Source of the DNA: a virus
Lineage: Duplodnaviria > Caudoviricetes
DNA length: 57,526 nt
Virus record (IMG/VR): IMGVR_UViG_3300017646_000068
Location: 1-57,526 of that record
Reading direction: 5' to 3' (one strand)
Shown: one piece after another, positions 1 to 57,526 of the stretch
Layout: every line of letters begins with the position of its first letter
How positions within the stretch are numbered: position 1 is the stretch's first letter
Notes under the pieces: generated by a model
The model's database searches: none
Seen by the model: only the letters and a program-made list of their open reading frames with translations
What the model was told of the DNA's origin: nothing
Translations under genes and position numbers: made by a program

Positions 1-148
1 GAACCGCCATTTGCGCAATGATGAGATTCAAGCTTTATTAGATGAATTACGGCATACGACCGACCCGTTTACATGCCCACATGGTCGTCCAATTATTATT
101 CACTACTCGTCATATGACATGGAGAAGATGTTTAAACGGGTGATGTGA
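1..148 (+). CDS. mutL: Host DNA mismatch repair protein MutL, 3' end (partial)
   Basis: Frame from base 2 reads [54 protein letters not shown] and the terminal FKR are MutL C-terminal endonuclease motifs. Confidence 0.95.
105..146 (+). repeat. attL (42 bp)
   Basis: ACTCGTCATATGACATGGAGAAGATGTTTAAACGGGTGATGT matches 57404-57445 with one synonymous mismatch (GAG/GAA). It contains the palindrome GTCATATGAC. Confidence 0.95.
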
Positions 149-2401: not shown

Positions 2402-2776
2402 TTAAAAACCTTTCAACCATGTATCAAGTTTGTCGTTCGAATTTTTCTTTTGTTTTTTCTTTTCAGGACTTAATGGGTTATTTTTAGAGTTTATTTCAAA
2501 ATAATTAAGTAAGTTAGAATTGATGGTTTTAATCTCTTTTTTATCCATAATATACAATTCCCTTCCTAGTTTAGCACATATCAAAGTTCTGCTTTTTATT
2601 ATATAGGGCAAATAGGATATATTGAATACTTCTTTAAGAAAAGGCACAATATCTTTATTGTTTGTAAATACCTCTTTTGAATAAATTAATAGGGTTACAG
2701 TTCCTATTGTGTAACCAATGTCTGATTGTTTTTTTGGGTCTTTTAAATCATTAAGTAAGCTGTTCAGTGTCTTCAC
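2402..2776 (-). CDS. Hypothetical protein overlapping the ParA-like gene
   Basis: 124 aa. Overlaps the ParA 3' end and stops 4 nt before the next start. Confidence 0.75.
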   Translation of the reverse strand: MKTLNSLLNDLKDPKKQSDIGYTIGTVTLLIYSKEVFTNNKDIVPFLKEVFNISYLPYIIKSRTLICAKLGRELYIMDKKEIKTINSNLLNYFEINSKNNPLSPEKKKQKKNSNDKLDTWLKGF

Positions 2777-3632
2777 TTATATCATCCTCAATTATCTCTA
2801 CTTCACTTAATCTAACAAGAAGTTCATCTGTAATTCTCTCAATCTCTTCCAGAGATTTTTGATATTTCGAAGAGATGTTTCCTTGGTAACCAAACATTAG
2901 ATCATTTACTATTGTGGTAGAGTTTTCAAATATACCTAGATTCGAAACATCGGAATCCGATTCAAATTTTATTCTTATTTCTGAAGCTTTTTTTGTTTCG
3001 GCCATTTTTCTCATAGTATAGATTATGCCTAATGGTTTTATTTGTATATCCTCATCATACACCAAGTTATCAATTACTGTCTTTAGCATTTTAACCCCCA
3101 ATATTGAATATCTATCAATCTTTGAAGGGACTAAATAATAATCTGATGCGAATAATGCAGCATCAGTGTAAAATGAAATGGTTGGAGGACAATCAATAAA
3201 AATATAATCATAAGCTTCTTTTAGTTTATGTTCTGATATGAACTTTCTTAACCTTTTAAATAAGGATTTATTAGATGTATCATCTTTAATTATATCAATT
3301 GTTCCACATATTAAATCAATATTTGGCTCATTGGTAAAGTTGAGGATAACTTCTTCCCTTTCTGGGGTTTTTGGTCTTTCAGAAATGGTTTTAGTATCTT
3401 CAAATATTTTTCGAACTGTAATTCTATGGCGATAGTCTTCCATGTAGTTTTCTTCGTTATCTGTAAGATCCATTATTGATTGAGTGGTATTGAACTGTGG
3501 ATCAAGGTCAATAAATAAAACTTTTTTATGCTTAAAATTTGCAAGATATTCCCCTATACCTAAACATAAAGTAGTTTTTCCCACGCCGCCTTTCATATTA
3601 ATGAATGATATTACTTTACCATCTTTACTCAT
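2751..3632 (-). CDS. ParA/Soj-family ATPase
   Basis: Deviant Walker A KGGVGKTT, plus IDLDPQFN and YIFIDCPP. Confidence 0.92.
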   Translation of the reverse strand: MSKDGKVISFINMKGGVGKTTLCLGIGEYLANFKHKKVLFIDLDPQFNTTQSIMDLTDNEENYMEDYRHRITVRKIFEDTKTISERPKTPEREEVILNFTNEPNIDLICGTIDIIKDDTSNKSLFKRLRKFISEHKLKEAYDYIFIDCPPTISFYTDAALFASDYYLVPSKIDRYSILGVKMLKTVIDNLVYDEDIQIKPLGIIYTMRKMAETKKASEIRIKFESDSDVSNLGIFENSTTIVNDLMFGYQGNISSKYQKSLEEIERITDELLVRLSEVEIIEDDISEDTEQLT

Positions 3633-5322: not shown

Positions 5323-5754
5323 TTAAATTTTTTTGAGATGCGATAATTCACGGGGAATACCATGCATCTCGCAAGCTTCGTACATTGATAGATTACTATC
5401 TCTATACTCATAAATTGCTTCATCTAGAAGGAGAAGCTCAACTGCGAATGTATTTGCTTCGACTTCTATTTTATCAATTGAAAAAAATGTGTTTTTTTTG
5501 AGGAAGGGGGTGTTGGATCTCGGATGTAATATAGCATGTCCTAACTCATGGGCGCATACAAAGCGCTGCATCTCAGCTGATAGGTTATTATTAATATTAA
5601 TAAATTTAATGCGACTATCATGAAAATAAAAACCTAAAGTATTACCGAGGTCAGCGTACTGTATTTCAATGTTTTTTAACTTAGCGATTTGGTAAGGGTC
5701 GTTTGTTTTATATTTTCTGATTAGTTCATCAACTTTTCCTTTAATTGATTTCAC
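5323..5754 (-). CDS. ImmA/IrrE-family Zn metallopeptidase (anti-repressor)
   Basis: AHELGH and EVEANTFA; directly downstream of the repressor. Confidence 0.92.
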   Translation of the reverse strand: MKSIKGKVDELIRKYKTNDPYQIAKLKNIEIQYADLGNTLGFYFHDSRIKFININNNLSAEMQRFVCAHELGHAILHPRSNTPFLKKNTFFSIDKIEVEANTFAVELLLLDEAIYEYRDSNLSMYEACEMHGIPRELSHLKKI

Positions 5755-5767
5755 TAGTTAACACCCC

Positions 5768-6199
5768 TTACTCGCTGTCATCTCTGTATTTTTTAGGTGT
5801 GAATTTCTTTTTCGCTAGTTGTTTAGCAAGACGAAGATTACTTTCTATTTGTGCCTTTACAAGCTCACGAGTAGTTTCATCTAAAGGTTCACCATCAAAA
5901 GCCAATCCAGACTCACTGTCTAAATCGTTTAGTATACTTTCTAATTTTTTGGCGATGTCTTTTTCATCCTTTTGAGTTAAATCAGGCATATTAGTTTGTG
6001 TATTTTTTTTATTGTTGCCAGAGATTAAGTAATCGGTTGAAACATTATAAAAGTCTGCTAATTTTTTTAGTATTTCAGAATCTGGTTCACTTCTCCCGGT
6101 TTCATAATGGGATAATCTAGCTCTTGAAATCCCAATTTTAATAGCAATTTCTTCTTGTGAACGTTTTCCGCGAAGTTTTTTTAATCTTTCTCCAATCAT
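5768..6199 (-). CDS. Xre-family prophage repressor (ImmR/CI-like)
   Basis: N-terminal [29 protein letters not shown]; divergent from the cro-like gene. Confidence 0.92.
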
Positions 6200-12380: not shown

Positions 12381-13088
12381 TTGAATTATCTTAAAGAGCT
12401 GAACGCTTTTCATGAATGGCTGGACACAAATCCTACATCCAGTGGGGCTATTGTTCTCTGGTACACATTAATGGCAGTCAACAATAAAACTAACTGGATA
12501 GATGAGTTTACAGTCGCTAATTTAGCGCTTCAAGCTAAAACAGGTTTATCACGTCAGCAGTTAGATAGGGCAAGGGCAGATTTAATTAATGCAGGAAGAA
12601 TCAGATACAAAAAATCAGGGCGAGTGAACAAAGCGGGTAGCTATTCGATTGTTAGTTTTGATACACAAAATGGACACGAAACAAGGCACAAAACGGACAC
12701 GAAACGAACACAAAGTGAACAAGAAGTAACCACATTAGTTAAACATAAACTAAATAAAACTAAACAAAAAGAAGATAAAGAAGATGATGATAACGCGCGT
12801 GTAAATCCTTTTACTTTTTTCGAACAAGAGGGATTTGGAACGATAAGTGGATTCACAGCAGAACGAATTGGCTACCTTATTGATGACTATAGCGAAGAGT
12901 CTGTAATAGCTGCTATGAAAGAGGCTGTTTTACATGGTGCTAGGAATCTCAAATACGTGGAAGCGATTTTGAAAAATCCTAACAAGGATTCAGGAGCAAA
13001 AAGGAGGGGGAAAGTAAAAAATGTTAAAGGACATGAACCATCTGACAGCTTACTCAACAAATATGACTTCGGCACCCGTTTCGGATAA
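12381..13088 (+). CDS. Replication initiator with C-terminal DnaD domain
   Basis: N-terminal wHTH-like segment; AMKEAVLHGARNLKYVEAIL. Confidence 0.88.
   Translation: MNYLKELNAFHEWLDTNPTSSGAIVLWYTLMAVNNKTNWIDEFTVANLALQAKTGLSRQQLDRARADLINAGRIRYKKSGRVNKAGSYSIVSFDTQNGHETRHKTDTKRTQSEQEVTTLVKHKLNKTKQKEDKEDDDNARVNPFTFFEQEGFGTISGFTAERIGYLIDDYSEESVIAAMKEAVLHGARNLKYVEAILKNPNKDSGAKRRGKVKNVKGHEPSDSLLNKYDFGTRFG
12661..12730 (+). repeat. Iteron-like repeats; probable replication origin
   Basis: Tandem ACAAAA(T/C)GGACACGAAAC-type repeats inside the initiator gene, followed by an A-rich tract. Confidence 0.7.
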
Positions 13089-13845
13089 GCGTTGTACATC
13101 ATGCAAAAAGAAATTGTTTTTAAATGAACGTGGTGAACCTTTTTGCTGGTATTGCTCAGAAGTATCTCAGCAGGATTATCAACTAGCTAAAGAAACGGAA
13201 TATATTCACAAGAAAAAGCAGATTGAGGGTCTCTATGAGTCATTTGCTAATAATAGTTTGATTAACGAAAAACTTAAGAAGGCTACTTTTAAAAATTATA
13301 TTCCACCTAATCCTGAACTCGAAGCAGCTAAGAATCGCTACATAGATTTTGTGAGGGAATATGATTCAGATAATCCAATTAGCCTGTTAGTTATCGGTAA
13401 TTACGGTACAGGTAAAAGCCATTTAGCTGTTGCAGCTACGAAAGAATTTATGAAGATGGGCAAAACAGCTTTATTCATTCAGGTCAACAAGTTGCTCACT
13501 AAAATTAAGTCTACTTGGAATAAGAATAGTGAACTTACTGAAGGCAAGCTGCTGGATATTATATCGTCTGTAGATTTACTAGTCATTGATGATTTTGGGG
13601 CTGAGTTTACGGAAAAGGATAAGTCAGAAGTTACTTGGAAAGTCACGAAAATGAATGAAATTATAGATTCTAGAGCTGGTAGAGCTACTATTTTCACCAC
13701 TAATTTTACTATCGGTGAATTATCTAGTATGTACGGCGAGCGTGATTTTTCTCGAATGGTCCAGGATGCGGAATTCGTTGAAATGTACGGTGAGAATTAT
13801 AGATTGCGGAATTTTTCAAAAGGGAAGGTGGAGCAAGATGTATAG
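13021..13845 (+). CDS. DnaC/IstB-like helicase loader ATPase
   Basis: Walker A GNYGTGKS, Walker B LLVIDD, and IFTTN. Start codon uncertain. Confidence 0.92.
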   Translation: MLKDMNHLTAYSTNMTSAPVSDKRCTSCKKKLFLNERGEPFCWYCSEVSQQDYQLAKETEYIHKKKQIEGLYESFANNSLINEKLKKATFKNYIPPNPELEAAKNRYIDFVREYDSDNPISLLVIGNYGTGKSHLAVAATKEFMKMGKTALFIQVNKLLTKIKSTWNKNSELTEGKLLDIISSVDLLVIDDFGAEFTEKDKSEVTWKVTKMNEIIDSRAGRATIFTTNFTIGELSSMYGERDFSRMVQDAEFVEMYGENYRLRNFSKGKVEQDV

Positions 13846-20595: not shown

Positions 20596-21789
20596 ATGAG
20601 TGTGTTAGAACGTCAGTTTAACGGTGCGAGGTTAAGAGAAGGAAGAATATATCGAGGCTATACAATAACGGATCTTGCAAATGAATTAGGTGTTAGTAAG
20701 CAAATGATTTCAAAGTATGAAAATAATAAAGCTAATCCTACATTTGAAGCATTATTAGCGATAACCCATATATTAAAATTTCCAAAAGAGTATTTCTATG
20801 AAAAATCCGTTGAAGTAAAAACTGGCAATACGTATTTTCGGTCATTATTATCTACAGGAAAAAAGGAAAGGGAAATGCAGTATGATCGCGTAAAATACTT
20901 AACGATTATACGGTCATTGTTAGAAGAGTATGTAGACTTTCCAGAATTAGATGTACCAGATTTTTCAGAAGATGATATAGAAAATATTGAACAGGCAGCT
21001 AATCAGTTAAGGCAAGTATGGGGGCTTAGTGATGCGCCTATCAAAAATATTGTATACTTACTTGAAACAAAAGGATTTGTGATGAATTCAATTAAATTAG
21101 ATAAGAAAACAATTGATGCTTTTGGAGCTCATCATGAAACTAACGGGAAAAATTATTATTCCATCGTTCTAGGGAACGAAAAAAGGTCATATTACAGACG
21201 TCAATTTGATGCGGCTCATGAATTGGGTCATAAAGTGTTACATGATCCCTATTTGAACCTTGATGATTTGAGTAAAGAAGAGTTTAAACAAATGGAGCAA
21301 GAAGCAAATGACTTTGCAGCAGCATTTCTGTTACCAAGAGAAAGTTTCTTGAGAGACGTGTCTATTCATCCCAATGATTTAATGTATTACAAACTTCTTA
21401 AAAAGAAATGGTGTGTTTCTATCGGAGCAATGGTAATGCGTGCTTATAAATTAGGTGCTATATCAGATGGAACATATCAATATATGCAGCGATCAATTAG
21501 TCAAAAAGGATGGAGAAAAAAAGAGCCTTTAGATGACATAAAAGAAGTTAAAGATCCTGTTGCAATGAAACAAGCTGTAGAACTTCTAATAGAAAATGAT
21601 TATATAACAGGTGATGAGTTTATGCAGAAACTTTCCAAGCATTACGGTCTCAGTTTGTTTAGAGAAGAAGTGGAAGAGTTGCTTGGATTAGACCCAGGAT
21701 ATTTAAAGTCAGAAGAGATTGTTCATTCTAATAATATTGTCAGTCTAAAAGACAAAATTGAATCAAAATCGCAAGGGAAATTAAGTTAA
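20596..21789 (+). CDS. Xre-HTH plus ImmA/IrrE Zn-peptidase fusion (putative antitoxin)
   Basis: FNGARLREGR..HTH, RRQFDAAHELGH and EQEANDFAAAFLLP. Confidence 0.9.
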   Translation: MSVLERQFNGARLREGRIYRGYTITDLANELGVSKQMISKYENNKANPTFEALLAITHILKFPKEYFYEKSVEVKTGNTYFRSLLSTGKKEREMQYDRVKYLTIIRSLLEEYVDFPELDVPDFSEDDIENIEQAANQLRQVWGLSDAPIKNIVYLLETKGFVMNSIKLDKKTIDAFGAHHETNGKNYYSIVLGNEKRSYYRRQFDAAHELGHKVLHDPYLNLDDLSKEEFKQMEQEANDFAAAFLLPRESFLRDVSIHPNDLMYYKLLKKKWCVSIGAMVMRAYKLGAISDGTYQYMQRSISQKGWRKKEPLDDIKEVKDPVAMKQAVELLIENDYITGDEFMQKLSKHYGLSLFREEVEELLGLDPGYLKSEEIVHSNNIVSLKDKIESKSQGKLS

Positions 21790-49829: not shown

Positions 49830-50050
49830 AAGATATAGTTACTTTGCTAGGAGGGTTCTTAACGGCCCTTCTTTTCTTTTTTGGCACGATTGGCATTAAG
49901 TTTGATTGGTTTACCGAAGAAAGTATTAATGCCTTTGTATTAGTCTTATCTGCTTTTGTAGCACTTGTTATTAATCTATTCGCAGTGTGGAAAAATACTC
50001 ATACTGGTTGGTTTAAAAAGAAAAACCCCAAAAGGAAGGGGGATAAATAA
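49826..50050 (+). CDS. Holin
   Basis: Two TM segments, AVWKNT, basic tail; precedes the endolysin. Confidence 0.85.
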   Translation: MKDIVTLLGGFLTALLFFFGTIGIKFDWFTEESINAFVLVLSAFVALVINLFAVWKNTHTGWFKKKNPKRKGDK

Positions 50051-50736
50051 TGACTGATTATGCAGTAGTAGCTGGACATAATGACATTATTCCGGGAGCA
50101 TCTGGGAATGGATTTAAAGAACACGTTGTGGCAAGACAAATCAAAGATCGAGTGATTTATTTTTTAAAGCATCTTGGCGAAAAAGCTTATGATTGTACCG
50201 ATGAAATAGGTAAAACAAAAGAACAGGTATGGTTAAATGCAGCTAATAATTGTAATAAAAAAATCGGTAAAGATGGCATAGTGATTGCTTTACATCTTAA
50301 TGCTGGCGGCGGCACTGGAACAGAGGTATTTGATTATAAAGGTAAACAAAAAGCTAAATGCCAAGCCGTAGCGCAAAGGCTGGCAAAAGATTTTTGTTGG
50401 CCAACAAGAGGGGACAAAGGTTGGAAAGACGGGGATTGGATTGGACTGATTAAAAAAGCACAGGCCCCAGTTGTTTATATTGAGCTGTGCTTTATTGATA
50501 ATATTACAGATATCACTAAATTAACTCGTAATATCGACATGGCTGCAATCGGAATCGTTGAAGAGATTACAGGAAAGAAAGTTAATACTTCCTCTTCTAA
50601 GGAAACAAAACTAGCTGTTAAAGCGTCTGAAAATAAGTTTTATCGTGTGCAAGTTGGAGCATTCCAGAATAAAGAACATGCATTAGCCCTTGCAGCTGAA
50701 CTAAAGAAAAAAGGTTATCCAACTGTGATTGTTTAA
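50050..50736 (+). CDS. Endolysin: Amidase_3 plus SPOR-like binding domain
   Basis: AGH...E, ALHLNA, IELCFIDN and YRVQVGAF. Confidence 0.93.
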   Translation: MTDYAVVAGHNDIIPGASGNGFKEHVVARQIKDRVIYFLKHLGEKAYDCTDEIGKTKEQVWLNAANNCNKKIGKDGIVIALHLNAGGGTGTEVFDYKGKQKAKCQAVAQRLAKDFCWPTRGDKGWKDGDWIGLIKKAQAPVVYIELCFIDNITDITKLTRNIDMAAIGIVEEITGKKVNTSSSKETKLAVKASENKFYRVQVGAFQNKEHALALAAELKKKGYPTVIV

Positions 50737-51105: not shown

Positions 51106-51654
51106 ATGAGTAAAAAATTATATATGTATCGTATTTTACCGGGCTACAAAGATACCCCTTTCCATAGTAATGAACAAGATGGTGTATTCCTTTCTCATAA
51201 TTGGCCTTTACTAGGTTTAGACAGACAGATTTGGCGTGGACAGAAAGTTAAAAAATTCCAAACTGAAATTCCAGTGAAGCCTTTTGAAGTGAGACAAAAG
51301 AAGTTTGATCTTCTTATTTCCATATCAAAAGAGATAGGAATTAGGCTAATTAAAATTAATTTTTCAAATGATTTGTATGAGGAAGAACATATAGCTTTGC
51401 TTAGCCTTATTCGAATGTCTGATATAGAAGGAATTCTGCAGTTTATTGAGCAACAAAGGTATGATTTTGGTAATGATATCGAATCAATTACTTTTTTAGT
51501 GGATGACAGTAATCCTAAAGAACATGTTACGTTTACAAGAGAAGGTGTTTTGATTAGTGATATAGATGATGAACAAGAGCTGGAAGATATGCTATCATCT
51601 TTACCAATAGGTGTTTTATCTGGTACTTATTTACCGAATCTAGAAGAGTTGTAA
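51106..51654 (+). CDS. Hypothetical protein, gene A of the three-gene cassette
   Basis: 182 aa; RBS AGGAGGAGG. Confidence 0.85.
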   Translation: MSKKLYMYRILPGYKDTPFHSNEQDGVFLSHNWPLLGLDRQIWRGQKVKKFQTEIPVKPFEVRQKKFDLLISISKEIGIRLIKINFSNDLYEEEHIALLSLIRMSDIEGILQFIEQQRYDFGNDIESITFLVDDSNPKEHVTFTREGVLISDIDDEQELEDMLSSLPIGVLSGTYLPNLEEL

Positions 51655-51673
51655 AATGGGGGATGATTATTAG

Positions 51674-52369
51674 TTGGAAAGAGGACTTGTTTTTCGTGAA
51701 TTGATTAAACAACTCATTTCTCTTGGGTTGTTTTATTGTTTAATGAGCATTTGGTGGGGAGATGAACAATGGTTTAAAGATAAAGTAAAAGAACTTTCTT
51801 TTTTTATCAGTATGGGCTTTATTTTTCTAATTGTCTCCCTGCTAACTTATGCGATATCTAGACCCATTCTCCTTCAAATTGAACAGACTAATAAGCACTT
51901 TGGTAGATCGGAAACCACTTTTTCTATTTCTGGAACCCAAAAAACTCAAGAGCATGAACGGGTCGTAGACTTAACAATTAATGTTGTTAAGAATGTATCT
52001 ATTTGGACTTGGCTTACAAGAAAGATTATAGAAAAAATGGATATTTATATTTTAATAGAACCGGTAACCCCGGGACTAGTATTAGAAGCGGAAAATGAGG
52101 CAATGCGTACTGATATTGTGTCCACACCAACAGGGTTCAAAATTAAGGTAGGAGAATATATTGCTAGAATTTTAAGAAGGTCTAATTCAGGCGAACATAG
52201 CAAGGGCTGTGAGTACGTTATTCAGGAGGACAGAGGAAATGTTGTAAGTAGCGAAACATTTCAAATAAACCCTGTGCTAATGTCACGTAATAAAGAAGCT
52301 CCTTCATGGGTGACCCTCTTTATTCGATTTAATAGCCCAAGCCACATCGTTCATTTTAAATGGGAGTGA
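51674..52369 (+). CDS. Two-TM protein, gene B of the cassette
   Basis: Two N-terminal hydrophobic helices, then a beta-rich soluble domain. Confidence 0.85.
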   Translation: MERGLVFRELIKQLISLGLFYCLMSIWWGDEQWFKDKVKELSFFISMGFIFLIVSLLTYAISRPILLQIEQTNKHFGRSETTFSISGTQKTQEHERVVDLTINVVKNVSIWTWLTRKIIEKMDIYILIEPVTPGLVLEAENEAMRTDIVSTPTGFKIKVGEYIARILRRSNSGEHSKGCEYVIQEDRGNVVSSETFQINPVLMSRNKEAPSWVTLFIRFNSPSHIVHFKWE

Positions 52370-52378
52370 GGTAAAAGA

Positions 52379-53419
52379 ATGGCAGGGAAAGAAACTAAAC
52401 TAACTGTATGGGCTTTAGATCCTGAACTATCAATTGATGATATTCCGGAACTTCTTAATTTAGATTATTCGAAATATATTGAATATCTCAATGGTGCAGA
52501 CAGAGACTTGAATGAGTTTGACCGGAAATTGTTACATAGATGGCGAGAGTATAGTAATACTCAAGGAATCAATATTCAGAGTAAGGAAATATCAGGTCTG
52601 ACCATCAGGTGTGTCTCTGCATACGCCTTTATCGAGAGTCCCGCCCCTCAAAATCAGGCAGTGATAGGGGATTTTGTTTTACCACGCGAAAGAAGGGTCA
52701 GTCCTACGGAACTTCCTGTTTTCTTTTTTGAGTATATGAGAAGGGTGTACGCAATAGTTGTTGGTCCCGAATATAAGACAAGATATATACGCTCGGCGTT
52801 AATGGGCGGAGGACGTAATCCTGATGAGCAGCATACTAGATGGAAGAAGGTCCAATTTAAGGATATTCCAAATTACACATTCTCCAGTGATTTCTTTTAC
52901 TGGCTAATAAGTAAACAAAATACGACTGTAGGTACATCTTTAGTAAACATGGATATTAGCGATATCAGGTATTTATCTCAATCTGCTGATAGGAGAGATG
53001 TACATCACGAAAGTGAAGGAGATAACTTACTGGATGAAGCCATGTCTAAAACTGGTTTAGGTGTTAACAGCCGAGTTGGACAAGTTGGAACCACTATTAC
53101 ATGTCCAGGGGCTAACTTGAGATTTATCTTATTTGAGACAGGGGACTGCTATGTTGATAATTACCTTTCATCTGTAATTGGGCCTACGGGAGAAATCGAG
53201 CCGTTTGAAAATTATTTGGATATAGGCGCACTCATGTTATATGCAATAGTTCTTCCGGAACTAAAATCTGCATTTAACCACGAGAAAGATAGTCTCCAAT
53301 GGACAACCCGACACCAAGCTGATTCACGTAAAACGTGGGCTCTGGGAGCAATAAATGAACTTTGTTCAGAAAATGATATTAGCATAGAAGAAATTAAAGA
53401 TCTCGATTGGTTTAAATAA
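52379..53419 (+). CDS. Hypothetical protein, gene C of the cassette
   Basis: 346 aa; followed by the terminator CTGCTC..GAGCAG and a T tract. Confidence 0.85.
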   Translation: MAGKETKLTVWALDPELSIDDIPELLNLDYSKYIEYLNGADRDLNEFDRKLLHRWREYSNTQGINIQSKEISGLTIRCVSAYAFIESPAPQNQAVIGDFVLPRERRVSPTELPVFFFEYMRRVYAIVVGPEYKTRYIRSALMGGGRNPDEQHTRWKKVQFKDIPNYTFSSDFFYWLISKQNTTVGTSLVNMDISDIRYLSQSADRRDVHHESEGDNLLDEAMSKTGLGVNSRVGQVGTTITCPGANLRFILFETGDCYVDNYLSSVIGPTGEIEPFENYLDIGALMLYAIVLPELKSAFNHEKDSLQWTTRHQADSRKTWALGAINELCSENDISIEEIKDLDWFK

Positions 53420-53527
53420 AAAGGTTCTGCTCTAATTTGGAGCAGGCTTTTTTTATGTCAAATTCGTGAAGTTGAAGGATTTACTCTATCCAACGCTGAA
53501 TTATTCAGAAAAGGAGAGGTGATACAT

Positions 53528-53713
53528 ATGAAGAAACTACTTGAAATTCATTGTTGGGATTGTCGCCTGAGACTAGATCCAGACGATGTAGTTAACATGG
53601 ATGAAATCTACACGTTAACACACGACTTTTGCAACTCTATGGGGTTTAAGATTGAAGATACGGGGACATATGAGGAAATAGCGAAAAGACACCCGTACTA
53701 TTATAAGAAATAA
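53528..53713 (+). CDS. Small CxxC/HxxC Zn-binding protein
   Basis: CWDC...HDFC; SigH-like promoter at 53474-53502. Confidence 0.7.
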   Translation: MKKLLEIHCWDCRLRLDPDDVVNMDEIYTLTHDFCNSMGFKIEDTGTYEEIAKRHPYYYKK

Positions 53714-53772: not shown

Positions 53773-54381
53773 CTAACTTCCTTCACTTTCCACTAATTGT
53801 TTATTCGGTTGCCTTCCGTACTTATACATCAACTCAGCCAGTTCGTGCCTATCGACTAGCTTGATGCGGTTTGCCTTCGCTAAGTTTTCTGCCGGTTTAG
53901 TAAAAAATCGATTAGTAACAACGATACCTTCGGAAGCTTTATACATCGCCAGTGCTCCCACGACTTCCTGCACCGCTTTCACGCCTACTTTTTTTCCTTC
54001 ACCATAGCATTTAGCTTGAATGATGCTTATGCAGCCTTTTCGTTTTAAAATTAAGTCGGCGCCATATTCTCCTGAACCTTTTGTTACTTTGGCTCGATAG
54101 CCTTGTTGTTCATAAAGGGGAGCTAGGAAGTGTTCAAACTCATGACCACTCAAACTATCGACATCTTCAATGCTGGACTGCAGGTAACGCCTTGCCTGCA
54201 TATAACCAGCGATTGGCTTACCGAACAGAAGATATGCCCCTGTAAACAAAAGAATGATTAGGAGAGGCATGAAAAAGCTATAGAGTGATTTGGCTTGAGG
54301 TAGAATCAAAAGAACGATAATTACAGCAAGTGGTGTGATGCTGATTACTTTTGGTTGTCTTCTCCTTCGTCGTCTGGCCAT
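53773..54381 (-). CDS. Membrane-anchored Mrr-like restriction endonuclease
   Basis: Two TMs, then LSGHEFEHFL...GY...GADL...IQAKCY...AVQEV...VVTNRFFT. Confidence 0.88.
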   Translation of the reverse strand: MARRRRRRQPKVISITPLAVIIVLLILPQAKSLYSFFMPLLIILLFTGAYLLFGKPIAGYMQARRYLQSSIEDVDSLSGHEFEHFLAPLYEQQGYRAKVTKGSGEYGADLILKRKGCISIIQAKCYGEGKKVGVKAVQEVVGALAMYKASEGIVVTNRFFTKPAENLAKANRIKLVDRHELAELMYKYGRQPNKQLVESEGS

Positions 54382-54495
54382 AATACCGCCTACCTTGTTT
54401 TTCTTTTAGGGATTTCCCATAGAGACAATGTTTATTCAATAATTTTATTTGGATTAGCACTCCTGAAAGCTCACCTGAAAAATAGGTGGGCTATT

Positions 54496-54693
54496 TTATT
54501 CTGCTAAATGCCCCCATAATTCCTCTACTGTCATCTCTAGCACCCTTGCTATTCTCATGGCTACTGGTAACGTAGGAATCGATTTCCCTCGTACAATTAA
54601 ACTAAAAGCACCTCGTGATAAACCAGCCTTTTCCGCAATAAATCCCTGTTTCAACCCTCGTTCATCGAGTATCTTTTTTAATTTCGTCTCCAT
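54496..54693 (-). CDS. Xre-family regulator
   Basis: LKQGFIAEKAGLSRGAFSLIVRGKSIPTL; divergent from the FtsK gene. Confidence 0.88.
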   Translation of the reverse strand: METKLKKILDERGLKQGFIAEKAGLSRGAFSLIVRGKSIPTLPVAMRIARVLEMTVEELWGHLAE

Positions 54694-54734
54694 TCTAATC
54701 ACCTCGTTATTTTTATATTCGATGAAAATTTTGC

Positions 54735-54932
54735 TTGTCCTTTAAACTTTTTAGTTATAGGACAAATCATGCCTTCAATATACATTTACAAATTCACAAA
54801 AACATACAGAAACAAGGTCGCCACAACATTCGTTTTCTATGTTCGTTCAACGATTCGTTATATGAATATGCAAGCGAACTTTACAAGACCCATCGTTTCA
54901 AGGGTTTCGGCACTTATTTCGGCATTCGTTTT
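54735..54932. repeat. Inverted repeat and TTCG-core direct repeat cluster
   Basis: TTGTCCT-N17-AGGACAA (54735-65); TTCGTT at 54829, 54842, 54854 and 54925; TTTCGGCA at 54905 and 54917. Confidence 0.7.
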
Positions 54933-54976
54933 CCTTGAAACTATTTATAAATAAATACTTAAAAGGCGGTGGTGTG

Positions 54977-56275
54977 ATGCTGTTTGAAATTACAACAACT
55001 TCATTGATGGCTGGTTTAGTCGGATATTCTTATTTGAAAAAGAACGGTCTCTCCGATGTAGATAAGATTCAAAAGATTTGTTTGAATTGCGGATTGACCA
55101 TTAAAGAAGGGAGCGATACGAAAACAATACAGTTATATAGAAAGAAAAAATATGATTGGGGAACAGAGTATGTGTATAGAATTCCTCTTGGTCTTTCATT
55201 CCAAGATTTCGAGAAACGAATCCATCATTTGAGAGATGGCTTAAATAGCAAAAAGTCTGTTATAGAACTTTCTGATTTGCTTAAGTTAAATTTCAGAACA
55301 AACATTATTAAACAGGTTCAGAACGTTATTAAAAATCGAAAACATTTACAGAAAGATGTTGAATTGGAGTATGACGGGATGCTTCATATAAAGGTCCTGA
55401 GTAATCCTTTGCCAGTAAACCTTCTATTTGATGAATCGTTACTTAGTAAGTGTAAAGGTTGGCAAATACCACTAGGTCAAACTCGATATGGATTTATTCA
55501 TTATGACATGGAAAGGGGACATATTACTTTAGCTGGATCAACCAGGAAAGGGAAAACTGTATTTCTTAAATTGCTAATTACTTCATTAATATATCGACAG
55601 TCTAATAATACAAAATTAACGCTTATCGATTTAAAAGGCGGCCTTGCTTTTACTCGATTCAAGGATCTTAAACAAGTAGAAACGGTTGCTACTGATTTGA
55701 ATAGTGCATTAAAAGCTTTAAAAAACGTCAAAAACGAAATGGAGAAAACGAAAGGATGGTTTGATAAAAGTGGATGTGAAGACATTAAAGAAGCTGGGAT
55801 TAATACTAGACATTTCATTATTGTTGATGAAGCAGCGCAAATCTCGCCGCAAATCATCACCGGGAAAGAAGAGAAAGAAAAAGCGCGTCAATGCGAAGAA
55901 GTACTCTCGGAAATAGCGCGAATCGGAGCTGGGTTAGGGTACCGTCTTGTCTATTGCTCACAGTATCCTACGGCCGATGTAATGAACAAGCAAATCAAGC
56001 AGAACTGCGATACGGTTATTACTTATAAATTGAGGGATGCTATTGCTTCTCGTGTGGTCTTAGATGAATCAGGAGCAGAAGATTTACCGATACCAGGTCG
56101 AGCGATATATAAAACGCCAGATGGTGTGCAGATTGTTCAAACTCCGTTTATAACGAATGAACAAATAGAAAAAATCATTAAGCCTAACATTGTTATGAAA
56201 GCCAGGAAGGAGGATATAGCTATTGAAGAACCAGCAGAGGCTAGAAGAAATACTTTTGAGCTTGAAGAAATGTGA
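54977..56275 (+). CDS. FtsK/SpoIIIE-family ATPase
   Basis: N-terminal hydrophobic segment, AGSTRKGKT, IDLKGG, IIVDEAA and SQYP. Confidence 0.92.
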   Translation: MLFEITTTSLMAGLVGYSYLKKNGLSDVDKIQKICLNCGLTIKEGSDTKTIQLYRKKKYDWGTEYVYRIPLGLSFQDFEKRIHHLRDGLNSKKSVIELSDLLKLNFRTNIIKQVQNVIKNRKHLQKDVELEYDGMLHIKVLSNPLPVNLLFDESLLSKCKGWQIPLGQTRYGFIHYDMERGHITLAGSTRKGKTVFLKLLITSLIYRQSNNTKLTLIDLKGGLAFTRFKDLKQVETVATDLNSALKALKNVKNEMEKTKGWFDKSGCEDIKEAGINTRHFIIVDEAAQISPQIITGKEEKEKARQCEEVLSEIARIGAGLGYRLVYCSQYPTADVMNKQIKQNCDTVITYKLRDAIASRVVLDESGAEDLPIPGRAIYKTPDGVQIVQTPFITNEQIEKIIKPNIVMKARKEDIAIEEPAEARRNTFELEEM

Positions 56276-56792
56276 CTATCTTTCCAGAGAGCAATTACAG
56301 AAGATGCATGATCTTGGTCAAGATAGAAATGCTCAACGCGTTCTTAGTAATATGAACGAATACATTTCTCATTTTACTGAGGAAAGGAAAAAAATTTATT
56401 ACCTAAATGCAGCTGGACGCGAAATGATTCAGTCAGAAAAAGTCCGCAAGAAAACAGCCTTAGTTAACCACTATCTAATGCGAAATGATCTATACATTCA
56501 CTTTAAACGCCCTTCTAGTTGGAAGAATGAAATCAAAGTAGCCTTGAATGACATGTCCCTCATTGCAGATGCAGCATTTATCTCCAATAAACTCCACCAT
56601 TTTATTGAAGTTGATTATAAGCAATCCATGTCCAAAAATATTCAAAAGATAAAAAAGTACAGACAATTGGCCGCACTCAATCCACAATTCGCACTAATAT
56701 GGGTTACAACAACTCCGTATCGGAAAAAGAAAATAGAATCCTTATGTGAAGGTCTGAAAGGTAGAGTTTTTCTTTGGGATGATATTAAATAG
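56223..56792 (+). CDS. Replication-relaxation (Replic_Relax) family protein
   Basis: wHTH LSREQLQKMH, HYLMRND, IADA...FIEVD...KIKKY. Confidence 0.85.
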   Translation: MKNQQRLEEILLSLKKCDYLSREQLQKMHDLGQDRNAQRVLSNMNEYISHFTEERKKIYYLNAAGREMIQSEKVRKKTALVNHYLMRNDLYIHFKRPSSWKNEIKVALNDMSLIADAAFISNKLHHFIEVDYKQSMSKNIQKIKKYRQLAALNPQFALIWVTTTPYRKKKIESLCEGLKGRVFLWDDIK

Positions 56793-56804
56793 GAGGGGTT
56801 CATC

Positions 56805-57221
56805 ATGAAAACACAAACTATGACAATCAGAGCGTTTATGAGCGGTGAATATAACAATAGGAAGAAAAGAGATTTTAGACCTCTCCAAGCTGCAACAGCT
56901 ATAGTTACACCATTTATTTTATCGCCACTTAAAACTTCAGCTGAAACTATTCAAGCGGTACCCGTTGGCGCAGTCACTAAAGCTGCAGGTACTAACCTTA
57001 CCGAAGTTATAGCGCATGCATTAGATCCGTTAGTTGATATCATGGTTGCTTTGTCTTTCCCAGTTGCATCAGTCGTAATCGTTGGAGCCTGTTTCTTCTT
57101 TATGTTTGGTCAAGGCGATAGAGCATGGACCATGATTATGAATTCAGGATTAGGATATGTATTAATTCAGATATCTCCATTATTTTTGAAAATATTGAAG
57201 GATATAGGAGCAGCGATTTAA
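56805..57221 (+). CDS. Membrane protein, TrbC/VirB2 pilin-like
   Basis: Leader, then two hydrophobic helices split by GQGDRAW; GLGYVLIQ..P. Confidence 0.55.
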   Translation: MKTQTMTIRAFMSGEYNNRKKRDFRPLQAATAIVTPFILSPLKTSAETIQAVPVGAVTKAAGTNLTEVIAHALDPLVDIMVALSFPVASVVIVGACFFFMFGQGDRAWTMIMNSGLGYVLIQISPLFLKILKDIGAAI

Positions 57222-57283
57222 GGGAGTGAATAAACAGTATTTTATTTTCGAAGATGATGAAAGAGGGGGGCAACTGATGATGG

Positions 57284-57302
57284 TTGCCCACCATATGCCC
57301 AC
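57284..57302 (+). promoter_or_regulatory. Putative integrase arm-type sites (right arm)
   Basis: TTGCCCACCATATGCCCAC, 18/19 identical to 177-195. Confidence 0.7.
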
Positions 57303-57403
57303 GTATACTTGAAAAGGTATAATCCAAAAAGAAAAGGCATAATCGAAAAATATAAAGTTAACGATATTTGAAAAGGTTTGATTTGGTTTAAAAACACCTG
57401 ATA

Positions 57404-57445
57404 ACTCGTCATATGACATGGAAAAGATGTTTAAACGGGTGATGT
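57404..57445 (+). repeat. attR (displaced original mutL 3' end)
   Basis: 41/42 match to attL; reads [13 protein letters not shown] followed by TAA. Confidence 0.95.
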
Positions 57446-57452
57446 AATTTCT

Positions 57453-57498
57453 AGCACTGAATAATCCTTGCTATATAAGGATTATTCAGTGCTTTTTT
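57453..57498 (+). terminator. Host mutL intrinsic terminator, displaced by the prophage
   Basis: Perfect 17-bp stem AGCACTGAATAATCCTT/AAGGATTATTCAGTGCT followed by a T tract. Confidence 0.9.
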
Positions 57499-57526
57499 GG
57501 TAGATTGACTACATTTCTTACCTGGA

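Follow-up and report, generated by a model that had tools for sequence, protein, structure and literature searches.

What does a small cassette with its own regulation, resembling the half of a conjugation system that cuts and pumps DNA, do at the end of a tailed prophage? Within the window, that is, the whole stretch of 57,526 nt that was analysed, the locus was one copy of a conserved cassette encoding an Xre regulator, a TcpA/FtsK-like ATPase, a MOBC-type Replic_Relax nuclease and a VirB2/TrbC-like protein (Table 1). All four genes, the 53-nt overlap between the FtsK and Replic_Relax genes, the inverted repeat and attR lay where the initial annotation had placed them; the gene identities and the conjugation-like flavour that it had proposed were strengthened by the similarity of the ATPase to the 6o1z set of solved chains, the identity of PF13814 with MOBC and an oriT-like leader. 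This type of cassette is already known, being common and annotated in phages of Bacillus-type bacteria; literature searches agreed with the earlier statement that no function has been demonstrated, the cassette having been noted in print without a functional test. Its gene identities, intact catalytic motifs, conserved synteny and cis-site architecture are shown by the data, whereas the "minimal DNA-transfer system" of the initial annotation is a hypothesis. What is added here is a conserved cis architecture in the leader between the Xre and FtsK genes, comprising an operator palindrome, phased direct repeats and a covarying hairpin.

Table 1. Features of the cassette and of the adjoining prophage boundary, numbered by position in the window
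Feature	Position	Strand	Basis and remarks
Xre-family (HTH_3) regulator, 68 aa	54496-54702	-	Pfam HTH_3 E 1.1e-09; divergent from operon
Operator-like inverted repeat TTGTCCTTTAA-N9-TTATAGGACAA	54735-54765	.	Repeat search, 91% complementary
Three phased direct repeats (A/G)TTCGTT	54826-54861	+	Spacing 13 and 12 nt; repeat search
Perfect 7-bp hairpin/palindrome TATTTAT-aa-ATAAATA	54942-54957	+	AAC before; ends 19 nt 5' of FtsK start codon
TcpA/FtsK-like P-loop DNA translocase, 432 aa	54977-56275	+	PF01580; phrog_1358 E 1.5e-102
Replic_Relax (MOBC-type), 189 aa	56223-56792	+	PF13814; phrog_2190 E 3.4e-58
VirB2/TrbC-like small membrane protein, 138 aa	56805-57221	+	phrog_5422 E 1.9e-43
attR core	57404-57445	.	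Direct repeat of attL 105-146, 98% identity over 42 nt

The attR, which is the prophage boundary and lies outside the cassette, was followed by a terminator hairpin at 57453-57493; attL corresponded, by sequence reading, to the 3' end of a mutL-like host gene, and no tRNA was found at the att site. The cassette was located in the moron zone, with lysis genes on one side, attR on the other and an Mrr-type nuclease adjoining, and 3.7 kb of unrelated ORFs separated it from the endolysin gene in this prophage. DnaD-like and DnaC-like genes were found at 12381-13845, with RecE/RecT close by; because these genes sit elsewhere, the cassette is not the replication module of the prophage. A ParA-like gene was also present. 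Within the 57.5-kb window there was no match to the VirB4-type families PF12846 and PF03135, bearing out the absence of VirB4 claimed at the outset, and no sigma-factor gene. A near-identity DNA search of phages gave no match, and an Rfam search of 54400-57526 (E≤1) returned only a chance lncRNA match.

The ORF of the ATPase spanned 54935-56275, opening at TTG 54935; its start is most likely ATG 54977, because MLFEI and the ribosome binding site are kept in 4 relatives. The protein matched PF01580 with 62.1 bits (Pfam cut-off 24), and Walker A residues G187, G192 and K193 as well as Walker B residues D284 and E285 were invariant among 38 sequences. In a PDB sequence search, its best relatives were 6o1z/6o1x/6o1w, described as "DNA translocase coupling protein" (E 3.2e-21 to 1.3e-19, query residues 145-414), whereas FtsK chains (E 1.2e-13) and EssC/EccC were more distant; no VirD4/TrwB chain was among the matches listed at E≤0.001, and the NCBIfam model TraD matched at E 7.5e-4 only. 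The three best chains are taken to be TcpA of pCW3, from the description in a review in which the code was printed 6OZ1. No gamma or wHTH domain was present after the motor, the match to the solved motor stopping at residue 414 of 432 with no further Pfam domain beyond. The N-terminus was conserved and mildly hydrophobic (MLFEI...), followed by KK; no confident transmembrane helix was predicted and no 19-residue window reached KD 1.6, whereas the N-terminal anchor of TcpA consists of two transmembrane helices. Membrane translocation by this ATPase is thus far an assumption. The FtsK gene of phage Fah belongs to the delayed-early transcripts and is hence expressed in infection (PMC4113786).

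The protein predicted for the overlapping downstream gene matched PF13814, the MOBC relaxase family (PMC5357655 Table 1; PMC12857230), with 49.6 bits (Pfam cut-off 25.3), and this domain was carried by all 120 homologues listed. Its AF2 model (pLDDT 96) comprised an N-terminal winged HTH, folded as helix-helix-helix-strand-strand, and a C-terminal PD-(D/E)xK nuclease, for which Foldseek matched the PD-(D/E)xK nucleases VC1899, Cdn1, Can2, Bax1, BstEII and FokI, from E 3.6e-05. Residues D116, E129, D131, Q134 and K142 were invariant; the "EVD" motif noticed earlier is real, E129-V-D131 being invariant in the alignments. The AICE initiator RepAM belongs to PF12307 and not to PF13814. A predicted complex of the ATPase with Replic_Relax scored 0.44 versus 0.00 for the best control, with partner pLDDT of at least 84 and at least 60% of contacts shared between runs. 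Of 80 solved complexes, 58 attained the score mark applied, as did 2 of 110 mismatched pairs, and scores of 0.60 or below were obtained by only 7 of those 80 solved complexes but by both passing mismatches; the modelling thus gives the complex weak support.

The 138-aa protein remained below the Pfam cut-offs of both pilin models used, TrbC/VirB2 (PF04956; 19.1 bits versus 27.9, E 0.0016) and T4SS_pilin (PF18895; 17.1 versus 26.6, E 0.0059). In its family, for which 504 homologues were found, 38 of 42 homologues matched T4SS_pilin and 28 of 42 TrbC at E≤0.01, with best E values of 9e-07 and 7.5e-07, respectively. The protein possessed, in order, a conserved N-terminus, a basic stretch, a signal-like segment ending at the invariant A46 and a two-helix hairpin (AF2 helices 57-100 and 104-137, pLDDT 83-94 over residues 71-120) with one strongly hydrophobic segment at 72-105. 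Thus, it has the build of VirB2/TrbC-type proteins, a long leader with a signal-peptidase-like end followed by a helix hairpin. Foldseek and VIA searches with the model returned generic helical hairpins, with no pilin chain among the matches listed; such fold searches do not separate this hairpin from other helical hairpins. No fourth small gene followed.

Homologues of Xre were observed in the equivalent position in related loci (L008-L011) and many genome loci, and the matching gene was annotated as XRE in phage PK5.2, a Bacillus phage-plasmid and WBeta; the protein is probably the private repressor of the cassette. The inverted repeat was kept in L008, L010, L013, L017, L021, L022, L024-L026 and L045, and GGACA occurred in 47 of 77 upstream regions versus 10.6 in shuffles. 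Judged from the layout, the GGACA half-sites may double as -35-like elements of two divergent promoters.

Downstream of the operator, TTCGTT was found at 54829, 54842, 54854 and 54925, all on the + strand (54 occurrences in the whole window, both strands), the last of these lying within a fourth exact copy of the repeat, CATTCGTTTTC, at 54923-54933. Phased arrays of at least 3 copies about 12 nt apart were detected, at -120 to -180 relative to the start codon, in 39 of 77 distinct related loci versus 6.1% of shuffles, and were undetected in the other 38. This phased-repeat test replaced a count of the most repeated 7-mer per locus, which was uninformative (p≤0.05 in 5 of 81 loci). Comparison of the TTCGY repeat type with Replic_Relax, ATPase and Xre gave no discrimination among the three (Spearman 0.42 for Replic_Relax versus 0.50 for the ATPase). 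By analogy with TraX of pAD1, the repeats are a candidate binding array for the Replic_Relax wHTH.

Hairpins homologous to that ahead of the FtsK gene were present in 80 of 81 upstream regions, 70–130 nt downstream of the repeats. Their covariation was strong, with 40 different left arms, all Watson-Crick paired, in 75 distinct sequence segments and 3-4 Watson-Crick pair types at each of stem positions 1-8 from the loop. A G-T wobble at the first unpaired position was seen in 5 of 68 loci, giving no sign of RNA-specific pairing. The hairpin is a candidate nick or processing site or, alternatively, a leader RNA hairpin; lying in a transcribed leader, it could be an RNA element or a palindromic protein site, and direct repeats with a hairpin equally describe a replication origin or autoregulatory sites. 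With regular expressions built on the consensus, neither sigE-like (3 of 77 versus 9.1 in shuffles) nor sigK-like -10 boxes (25 of 77 versus 28.2) were enriched.

The cassette was found in temperate, plasmid-borne and lytic phages, and every search placed it only in phages or prophages of endospore-forming Bacillales. The initial annotation had mentioned similar FtsK plus Replic_Relax pairs in Bacillus temperate phages; the cassette is not peculiar to temperate phages, since lytic Andromedaviruses and phage-plasmids of about 50 kb also carry it. The three core genes were in order at all 8 other loci compared and at 72 of the 80 genome loci that the 138-aa protein alone had retrieved. Of the 8 loci without the full cassette, seven had only an ORF or fragment similar to that protein, several N-terminally truncated and in non-cassette contexts, and the remaining one had such an ORF with an ATPase fragment; no obvious T4SS neighbourhood was seen in the ORF lists of these 8 loci. 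Replic_Relax homologues were encoded in 105 phage records and 124 plasmid records, many of the latter about 50 kb and phage-like. The closest copies had ATPases 70-77% identical, except for one of 89% in a Peribacillus asahii contig. In more than 100 phages, position after the lysis genes and gene order were constant, with no alternation with other systems. The main difference between two B. subtilis phages of 96% nucleotide identity is a 2,525-bp block of four ORFs with the composition of the cassette, as described in the available text of PMC9476937.

These features make it plausible, although the reading is held tentatively, that the cassette is a self-contained, separately regulated unit by which DNA of the phage itself is processed and translocated, much as in conjugation but without a type IV secretion system. 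Judged from the layout, Xre would bind the GGACA palindrome and hold the divergent operon off. Once the operon is on, the Replic_Relax wHTH would bind the leader repeats phased at about 12 nt, as TraX suggests by analogy, and its PD-(D/E)xK domain would nick or cut at the covarying hairpin that follows 70-130 nt downstream, or close to it. Through the weakly supported complex, Replic_Relax would then pass the DNA to the ATPase hexamer, the product of the upstream gene that overlaps its own. This ATPase might move the DNA across a membrane or septum, aided by the VirB2-like membrane protein, with the forespore, a sister cell of the same chain or a recipient as possible destinations. A bolder version, which we regard as doubtful, holds that the three proteins form a T4SS-independent conduit moving genomes of spore-former phages without a virion, into the forespore or between chained sister cells, with Replic_Relax as sequence-specific loader at an oriT-like site and the TcpA-like motor as pump. 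The forespore idea raised earlier fits the host range, but the lack of enrichment of sigE/sigK-type -10 motifs does not favour it. It counts against translocation in general that a benefit of exporting DNA is hard to see for lytic phages with their own polymerases.

Three other explanations have to be weighed against such processing and translocation. In one, which we consider unlikely, the cassette is a plasmid-type replication or segregation accessory, left over from a plasmid-prophage lifestyle or serving it: Replic_Relax, as a resolvase or as an initiator that binds iterons, would act at the repeats and hairpin as an origin, and the motor would segregate or decatenate extrachromosomal phage genomes. 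The family names (PHROGs "replication initiation protein", Pfam replication-relaxation), the 124 plasmid records, many of them phage-like plasmids, the origin-like elements ahead of the operon and the ParA-like gene are consistent with this, and it is the reading adopted in the available parts of PMC9658697 and PMC11526630. However, a complete replication module of the DnaD/DnaC type is already present in the prophage, the cassette neighbours phage-encoded polymerase genes in lytic Andromedaviruses and in phage Jayan, and in phage RBClin15 it adjoins a separate repA-like gene and parABS (PMC11526630). It is not obvious what a secreted, VirB2-like membrane protein would contribute to replication, and the ATPase is nearer to solved coupling-protein chains than to FtsK and has no gamma domain.

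Superinfection exclusion or anti-plasmid/anti-phage defence, in which the nuclease and translocase, together with a membrane partner, would be expressed from the prophage under control of the cassette's Xre and intercept incoming foreign DNA, appears improbable. The alternative had been raised by the initial annotation, and the moron-zone position between lysis genes and attR beside an Mrr-type nuclease, the private regulator and the occurrence of FtsK-like ATPase domains in the defence proteins SspH and mad8 agree with it, as does the variable block in the B. subtilis phage pair, which suggests a dispensable accessory unit (PMC9476937). But it gained no support from PADLOC-DB 2.0 beyond generic ATPase matches (SspH, mad8, HerA), no model there matching Replic_Relax or the 138-aa protein; one position and one gene order over more than 100 phages, conservation of a cis site in the DNA of the phage itself and presence in lytic phages also argue against it. 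It is highly improbable that, as in an IME, the relaxase and coupling protein hand excised phage DNA to a mating pore supplied by a conjugative element in the same cell. Streptococcal IMEs do combine a TcpA-type coupling protein with a non-canonical relaxase and borrow the T4SS of a helper (PMC5357655), and MOB-suite typed 28 of the 124 plasmids as mobilizable and 41 as conjugative. Against this, a VirB4-like AAA_10 gene was present in only 1 of 5 cassette-bearing host genomes and was not found in the genome with the closest copy, so that the cassette is probably independent of a resident T4SS; lytic phages with the cassette cannot be mobilised as stable elements; and in the available part of the survey TcpA never accompanied MOBC, the MOBC IMEs having VirD4 (PMC5357655).

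Few unexplained modules are as widespread as this cassette in phages of Bacillus and relatives, the well-studied gamma/WBeta group included, and its usual annotations, "cell division protein" and "replication initiation protein", are names given without tests. If the cassette does move phage DNA free of a capsid, this would give phages a new way to persist or spread, and the cassette would be a minimal machine for DNA translocation that links phages with conjugative elements. VirB2 homologues are said to be missing from Gram-positive T4SS classes (available text of bioRxiv 10.1101/2025.01.22.634366). Under the bolder version, the 138-aa protein would be the first VirB2-like protein shown to function without VirB4 in a Firmicute. 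The repeat array and covarying hairpin offer a defined cis site for binding, nicking and transfer assays, and the natural phage pair differing mainly by a cassette-type block (PMC9476937) is a ready comparison.

Among known systems, those of pCW3 and of ICEs/IMEs that pair TcpA with a non-canonical relaxase likewise have an FtsK-like motor, the present ATPase being closest to the solved coupling-protein chains, and tcpA lies directly upstream of the relaxase gene in ICEs/IMEs, the same order as that of ATPase and Replic_Relax here (PMC5357655). The cassette differs in lacking VirB4 and other T4SS genes and confident N-terminal transmembrane helices, in its tailed-phage context and in its MOBC-type partner, the TcpA partners in the available part of that survey being RCR-related relaxases. 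TraX, the MOBC relaxase of Enterococcus plasmid pAD1, likewise has PF13814, an N-terminal winged HTH and a restriction-endonuclease-like catalytic domain, and binds 5 direct repeats 70-120 bp from the nic site, a spacing at oriT2 similar to that between repeats and hairpin in the cassette leader (PMC12857230). TraX, however, depends on a coupling protein of the VirD4 type and on a complete T4SS for its work, and binding and nicking by the phage Replic_Relax are predictions. Streptomyces TraB, a single FtsK-like motor, moves double-stranded DNA with no need of a T4SS and reads short repeats, clt, on its own element (PMC3218068). Whereas TraB reads clt itself, the cassette motor ends about 20-30 residues past the ATPase domain with no wHTH, recognition would need the separate Replic_Relax protein, and the lineages are unrelated. 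SpoIIIE, which pumps the chromosome in sporulating Bacillus, shares the PF01580 motor family, and the host range of the cassette is endospore-forming Bacillales; its similarity is far weaker than that of coupling-protein chains, the cassette motor has neither a multi-span membrane domain nor a gamma domain, and no sporulation-type promoter was detected before the cassette. The closest counterparts are the FtsK/SpoIIIE-Replic_Relax-TrbC/VirB2 cassettes of Bacillus phages, some with a small DNA-binding protein, from which the present one differs by the 3.7-kb gap to the endolysin gene and the absence of a fourth small gene. Such cassettes, found in Andromedaviruses Novomoskovsk and Bolokhovo (PMC9658697), Geobacillus phage PK5.2, B. 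subtilis 268TH007/008 and B. cereus-group phage-plasmids of about 50 kb, agree with it in the three core genes (protein identities 26-61%), in their order and in the ATPase/Replic_Relax overlap, and their temperate members share with this prophage the divergent Xre and the position after the lysis genes.

The cassette in the window was a new copy of a widespread, already annotated gene set and no one-off system. ORF, Pfam and repeat analysis placed the four genes, the gene overlap and the inverted repeat where the initial annotation had put them, and its remark that no VirB4 gene accompanies them also held, a VirB4-type gene being found nowhere in the window. As judged from the sequence, the ATPase most likely starts at ATG 54977, because MLFEI and the ribosome binding site are conserved in four relatives. 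No fourth gene was found between the 138-aa ORF and attR, where there was only a 28-aa GTG ORF with, on sequence reading, no spaced ribosome binding site.

Features of the prophage and its cassette, from left to right where positions are given
Feature	Position (nt)	Strand	Remarks
Direct repeat, left copy	105-146		42 nt
Box, left copy	179-196
Tyrosine integrase	207-1322	-
ParA-like partition gene	2751-3632	-	phrog_164, E 1.2e-49; lysogeny arm, beside phrog_4225 endonuclease
ImmA/repressor pair	5323-6199		Main pair; right of ParA-like gene
Anti-repressor			Right of ImmA/repressor pair
RecE/RecT			Between anti-repressor and replication pair
DnaD-like and DnaC-like replication pair	12381-13845
Second HTH and ImmA-like metalloprotease fusion	20596-21789	+	phrog_2439, E 3.9e-109
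Terminase, then structural genes			Right of replication pair
Endolysin	50050-50736
Four unmatched ORFs	51106-53713	+	182, 231, 346 and 64 aa; between endolysin and Mrr gene
Mrr-type (Mrr_cat) restriction-type nuclease	53773-54381	-	202 aa; Pfam E 5.6e-33
Xre	54496-54702	-	HTH_3
Inverted repeat	54735-54765
ATPase ORF	54935-56275		PF01580
Replic_Relax	56223-56792		PF13814; 53-nt overlap with ATPase gene
138-aa ORF	56805-57221
Box, right copy	57286-57302
Direct repeat, right copy	57404-57445		42 nt
Terminator hairpin of mutL-like gene	57453-57493

The record represented a complete virus of 57.5 kb (CheckV 100%), bounded by a direct repeat whose two copies shared 98% identity. The left copy supplied the final codons of a host gene resembling mutL, whose terminator hairpin came after the right copy; the prophage sat in the 3' end of this gene and provided substitute terminal codons. 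A box, GCCCACCAT(T/A)TGCCCAC, was repeated just within both ends, and these copies are probably arm-type integrase sites. Gene order ran from the integrase to the endolysin, which preceded the attR region. The HTH/ImmA-like fusion lay mid-prophage, separate from the main ImmA/repressor pair, and the ParA-like gene of this integrating prophage may point to an ability to persist extrachromosomally. The cassette was placed right of the four unmatched ORFs and the Mrr-type nuclease gene, before attR. These ORFs form an accessory block without explanation: searches of Pfam, PHROGs, PADLOC and NCBIfam assigned none of them with confidence, and the 346-aa ORF had one sub-threshold Pfam hit. The Mrr_cat protein, with an arginine-rich and then hydrophobic N-terminus, matched ZorD-type nuclease domains in PADLOC and is possibly a defence protein; since its gene adjoined the cassette in none of 88 related loci, it was regarded as a separate moron.

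Walker A and Walker B were invariant in the ATPase homologues. By sequence comparison with PDB, the best solved relatives of the ATPase were the 'DNA translocase coupling protein' chains 6o1z, 6o1x and 6o1w (E 3.2e-21, residues 145-414), which outranked FtsK (1.2e-13) and EssC/EccC and were taken to be TcpA of pCW3. Solved TcpA is described in a 2025 review as more like FtsK than VirD4-type coupling proteins (PMC12857230). The C-terminus extended only 18 residues beyond the matched motor, and the protein therefore lacks a gamma-type DNA-reading domain; no confident transmembrane helix was found in it.

The highly confident AF2 model of the Replic_Relax protein (pLDDT 96) combined an N-terminal winged helix with a C-terminal domain that matched PD-(D/E)xK nucleases such as VC1899, Cdn1, Can2, Bax1, BstEII and FokI in Foldseek, from E 3.6e-05, and residues D116, E129, D131, Q134 and K142 were invariant. 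PF13814 has been placed in the PD-(D/E)xK superfamily, in most cases as a fusion with an HTH (PMC3424549), and in CONJscan terms it is the MOBC relaxase family (PMC5357655, Table 1). The predicted complex of ATPase and Replic_Relax scored 0.44 versus 0.00 for the best control, with a partner pLDDT of at least 84 and at least 60% of contacts shared between runs. Of 80 solved complexes, 58 attained this mark, as did 2 of 110 mismatched pairs; passing scores of 0.60 or less were seen in only 7 of the 80 complexes and in both passing mismatches. The modelling weakly supports association of the two proteins.

Matches of the 138-aa protein to TrbC/VirB2 and T4SS_pilin were both below the Pfam cut-offs; at E<=0.01, T4SS_pilin was matched by 38 of 42 family members and TrbC by 28. 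In the family alignment, the N-terminus was conserved and led into a basic stretch and a signal-like segment up to the invariant A46; next came two helices, which formed a hairpin in the AF2 model that fold searches could not distinguish from other helical hairpins. As Gram-positive T4SS classes are said in a preprint to be without virB2 homologues (10.1101/2025.01.22.634366), the presence of a VirB2-like family among phages of Bacillales is in itself unusual.

Among phages, the ATPase query matched 323 records, 96 of them over at least 80% of its length; the Replic_Relax query matched 105 (Bacillus 97, Geobacillus 6 and 'Staphylococcus' 2), and the 138-aa query 60 (Bacillus 51, Geobacillus 4, Staphylococcus 2, deep-sea thermophilic phage 2 and Brevibacillus 1). 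Among plasmids, Replic_Relax matched 124 records, many of about 50 kb and phage-like. The three genes occurred in the same order in a B. cereus-group phage-plasmid, B. subtilis phage 268TH008, Bacillus phage Jayan, Blastoid (a lytic Andromedavirus with terminal repeats) and the temperate Geobacillus phage PK5.2, where they followed the lysis genes with a divergent Xre and adjoined the integrase. In the variant carried by WBeta (locus L093, 1335-4407), a divergent Xre was followed by two small ORFs, one of them of membrane type, and by the ATPase gene, which a Replic_Relax-like gene overlapped; a 75-aa membrane protein took the place of the 138-aa type. Small membrane peptides lay on both sides of the ATPase/Replic_Relax pair in this variant. 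Scanning one genome per prokaryote species with the 138-aa family alone gave 80 loci, 72 of which had the ATPase, Replic_Relax and third gene in order; seven others had only a 138-aa-like ORF or fragment, and one such an ORF plus an ATPase fragment. All 80 loci were from spore-forming Bacillales genera except one contig (L043) labelled as a Candidatus Bathyarchaeia MAG. The cassette on it was complete and Brevibacillus-like, with identities of 43% in the ATPase, 40% in Replic_Relax and 44% in the third protein, and the contig most likely results from mis-binning of bacterial or phage sequence. The closest copy, on a Peribacillus asahii contig (L012, 5701-8414), shared 100% identity in the third protein, 99% in Replic_Relax, 89% in the ATPase and 88% in Xre, and these unequal values indicate a recombination breakpoint inside the cassette.

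The cis architecture of the leader is the new element of this analysis. In a comparison of the window and 80 related loci over the 330 nt preceding the ATPase start, an operator-like palindrome of GGACA half-sites was aligned near the Xre start, GGACA being present in 47 of 77 distinct upstream regions versus 10.6 in shuffles. Phased direct repeats, defined as at least three copies of a 6-mer with up to one mismatch spaced by 11-13 nt, were observed 120-180 nt before the ATPase start codon in 39 of 77 distinct loci versus 6.1% of 1,540 shuffles, and their motif varied with lineage (TTCGY, ATACCA, CCCGAT, TAACA). In the window, the + strand carried TTCGTT at 54829, 54842, 54854 and 54925, out of 54 copies counted on both strands of the whole window.

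A perfect hairpin with a stem of 5-10 bp and a loop of 2-5 nt was present in 80 of 81 regions, usually after AAC; the median distance from its end to the start codon was 34 nt. In 74 regions the stem had 6 bp or more, and in 44 of them 7 bp or more. A hairpin at a single locus is not rare by chance (shuffle fraction 0 to 0.55), and the evidence rests on shared position and compensatory changes. Left arms were of 40 different sequences among 75 distinct windows, and each stem position from 1 to 8, counted from the loop, used three or four Watson-Crick pair types; such extensive covariation indicates that pairing itself is under selection. G-T was not enriched at the first unpaired position (5/68), and there is therefore no specific pointer to RNA; the hairpin lies within the transcribed leader, which leaves room for an RNA role, and an Rfam search of the cassette region gave no family match.

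A search of the literature found no experimental test of cassette function. In the Novomoskovsk/Bolokhovo paper, TrbC/VirB2, Replic_Relax, FtsK/SpoIIIE and an RHH protein are already named as a set and interpreted as remnants of plasmid replication or segregation (PMC9658697). In a genome announcement, two B. subtilis phages of 96% nucleotide identity differ mainly by a four-ORF block of 2,525 bp with exactly this composition (PMC9476937), and a review gives the phage Fah FtsK gene as a delayed-early transcript (PMC4113786).

We tentatively read the cassette as a self-directed DNA-processing and translocation unit, a reading held at somewhat less than even chance. Xre would repress the operon via the palindrome; Replic_Relax would load on the repeat array, nick or cut at the hairpin and hand the DNA to the TcpA-like motor, with the VirB2-like protein as a membrane component. 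Confinement to phages of endospore formers and presence in lytic phages fit forespore delivery; this distribution may, however, be simple phylogenetic reach. A promoter of sporulation type was not confirmed: -10 patterns following sigE-like and sigK-like consensus sequences were not enriched in leaders (3 of 77 versus 9.1 and 25 of 77 versus 28.2 in shuffles, respectively), and no sigma-factor gene was found in the window.

An accessory for replication or segregation of a plasmid-like state, in line with the published reading of remnants, is an unlikely explanation. The cassette as main replication module of the prophage was rejected, that role belonging to the DnaD-like and DnaC-like pair. 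Superinfection exclusion or defence, the latter also raised by the initial annotation, appears doubtful, as PADLOC returned generic ATPase matches only and no known defence system. Helper-dependent mobilisation is very improbable: a VirB4-like AAA_10 gene was present in only one of five cassette-bearing host genomes, which argues against general reliance on a resident T4SS, and was not found in the host genome with the closest copy. The remaining weight belongs to explanations not yet considered.

The interest lies in the cassette family as a whole and in its well-defined cis site, the latter making function directly testable. The conjugation-like reading first proposed for the window stands as reasonable and is somewhat strengthened by the likeness to coupling proteins, the MOBC family and the oriT-like layout. 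TraX of pAD1 is reported in the 2025 review to bind five direct repeats located 70-120 bp from nic, with a covalent intermediate not detectable (PMC12857230). The cassette leader shares this layout, its repeat array and an inverted repeat lying 70-130 nt apart.
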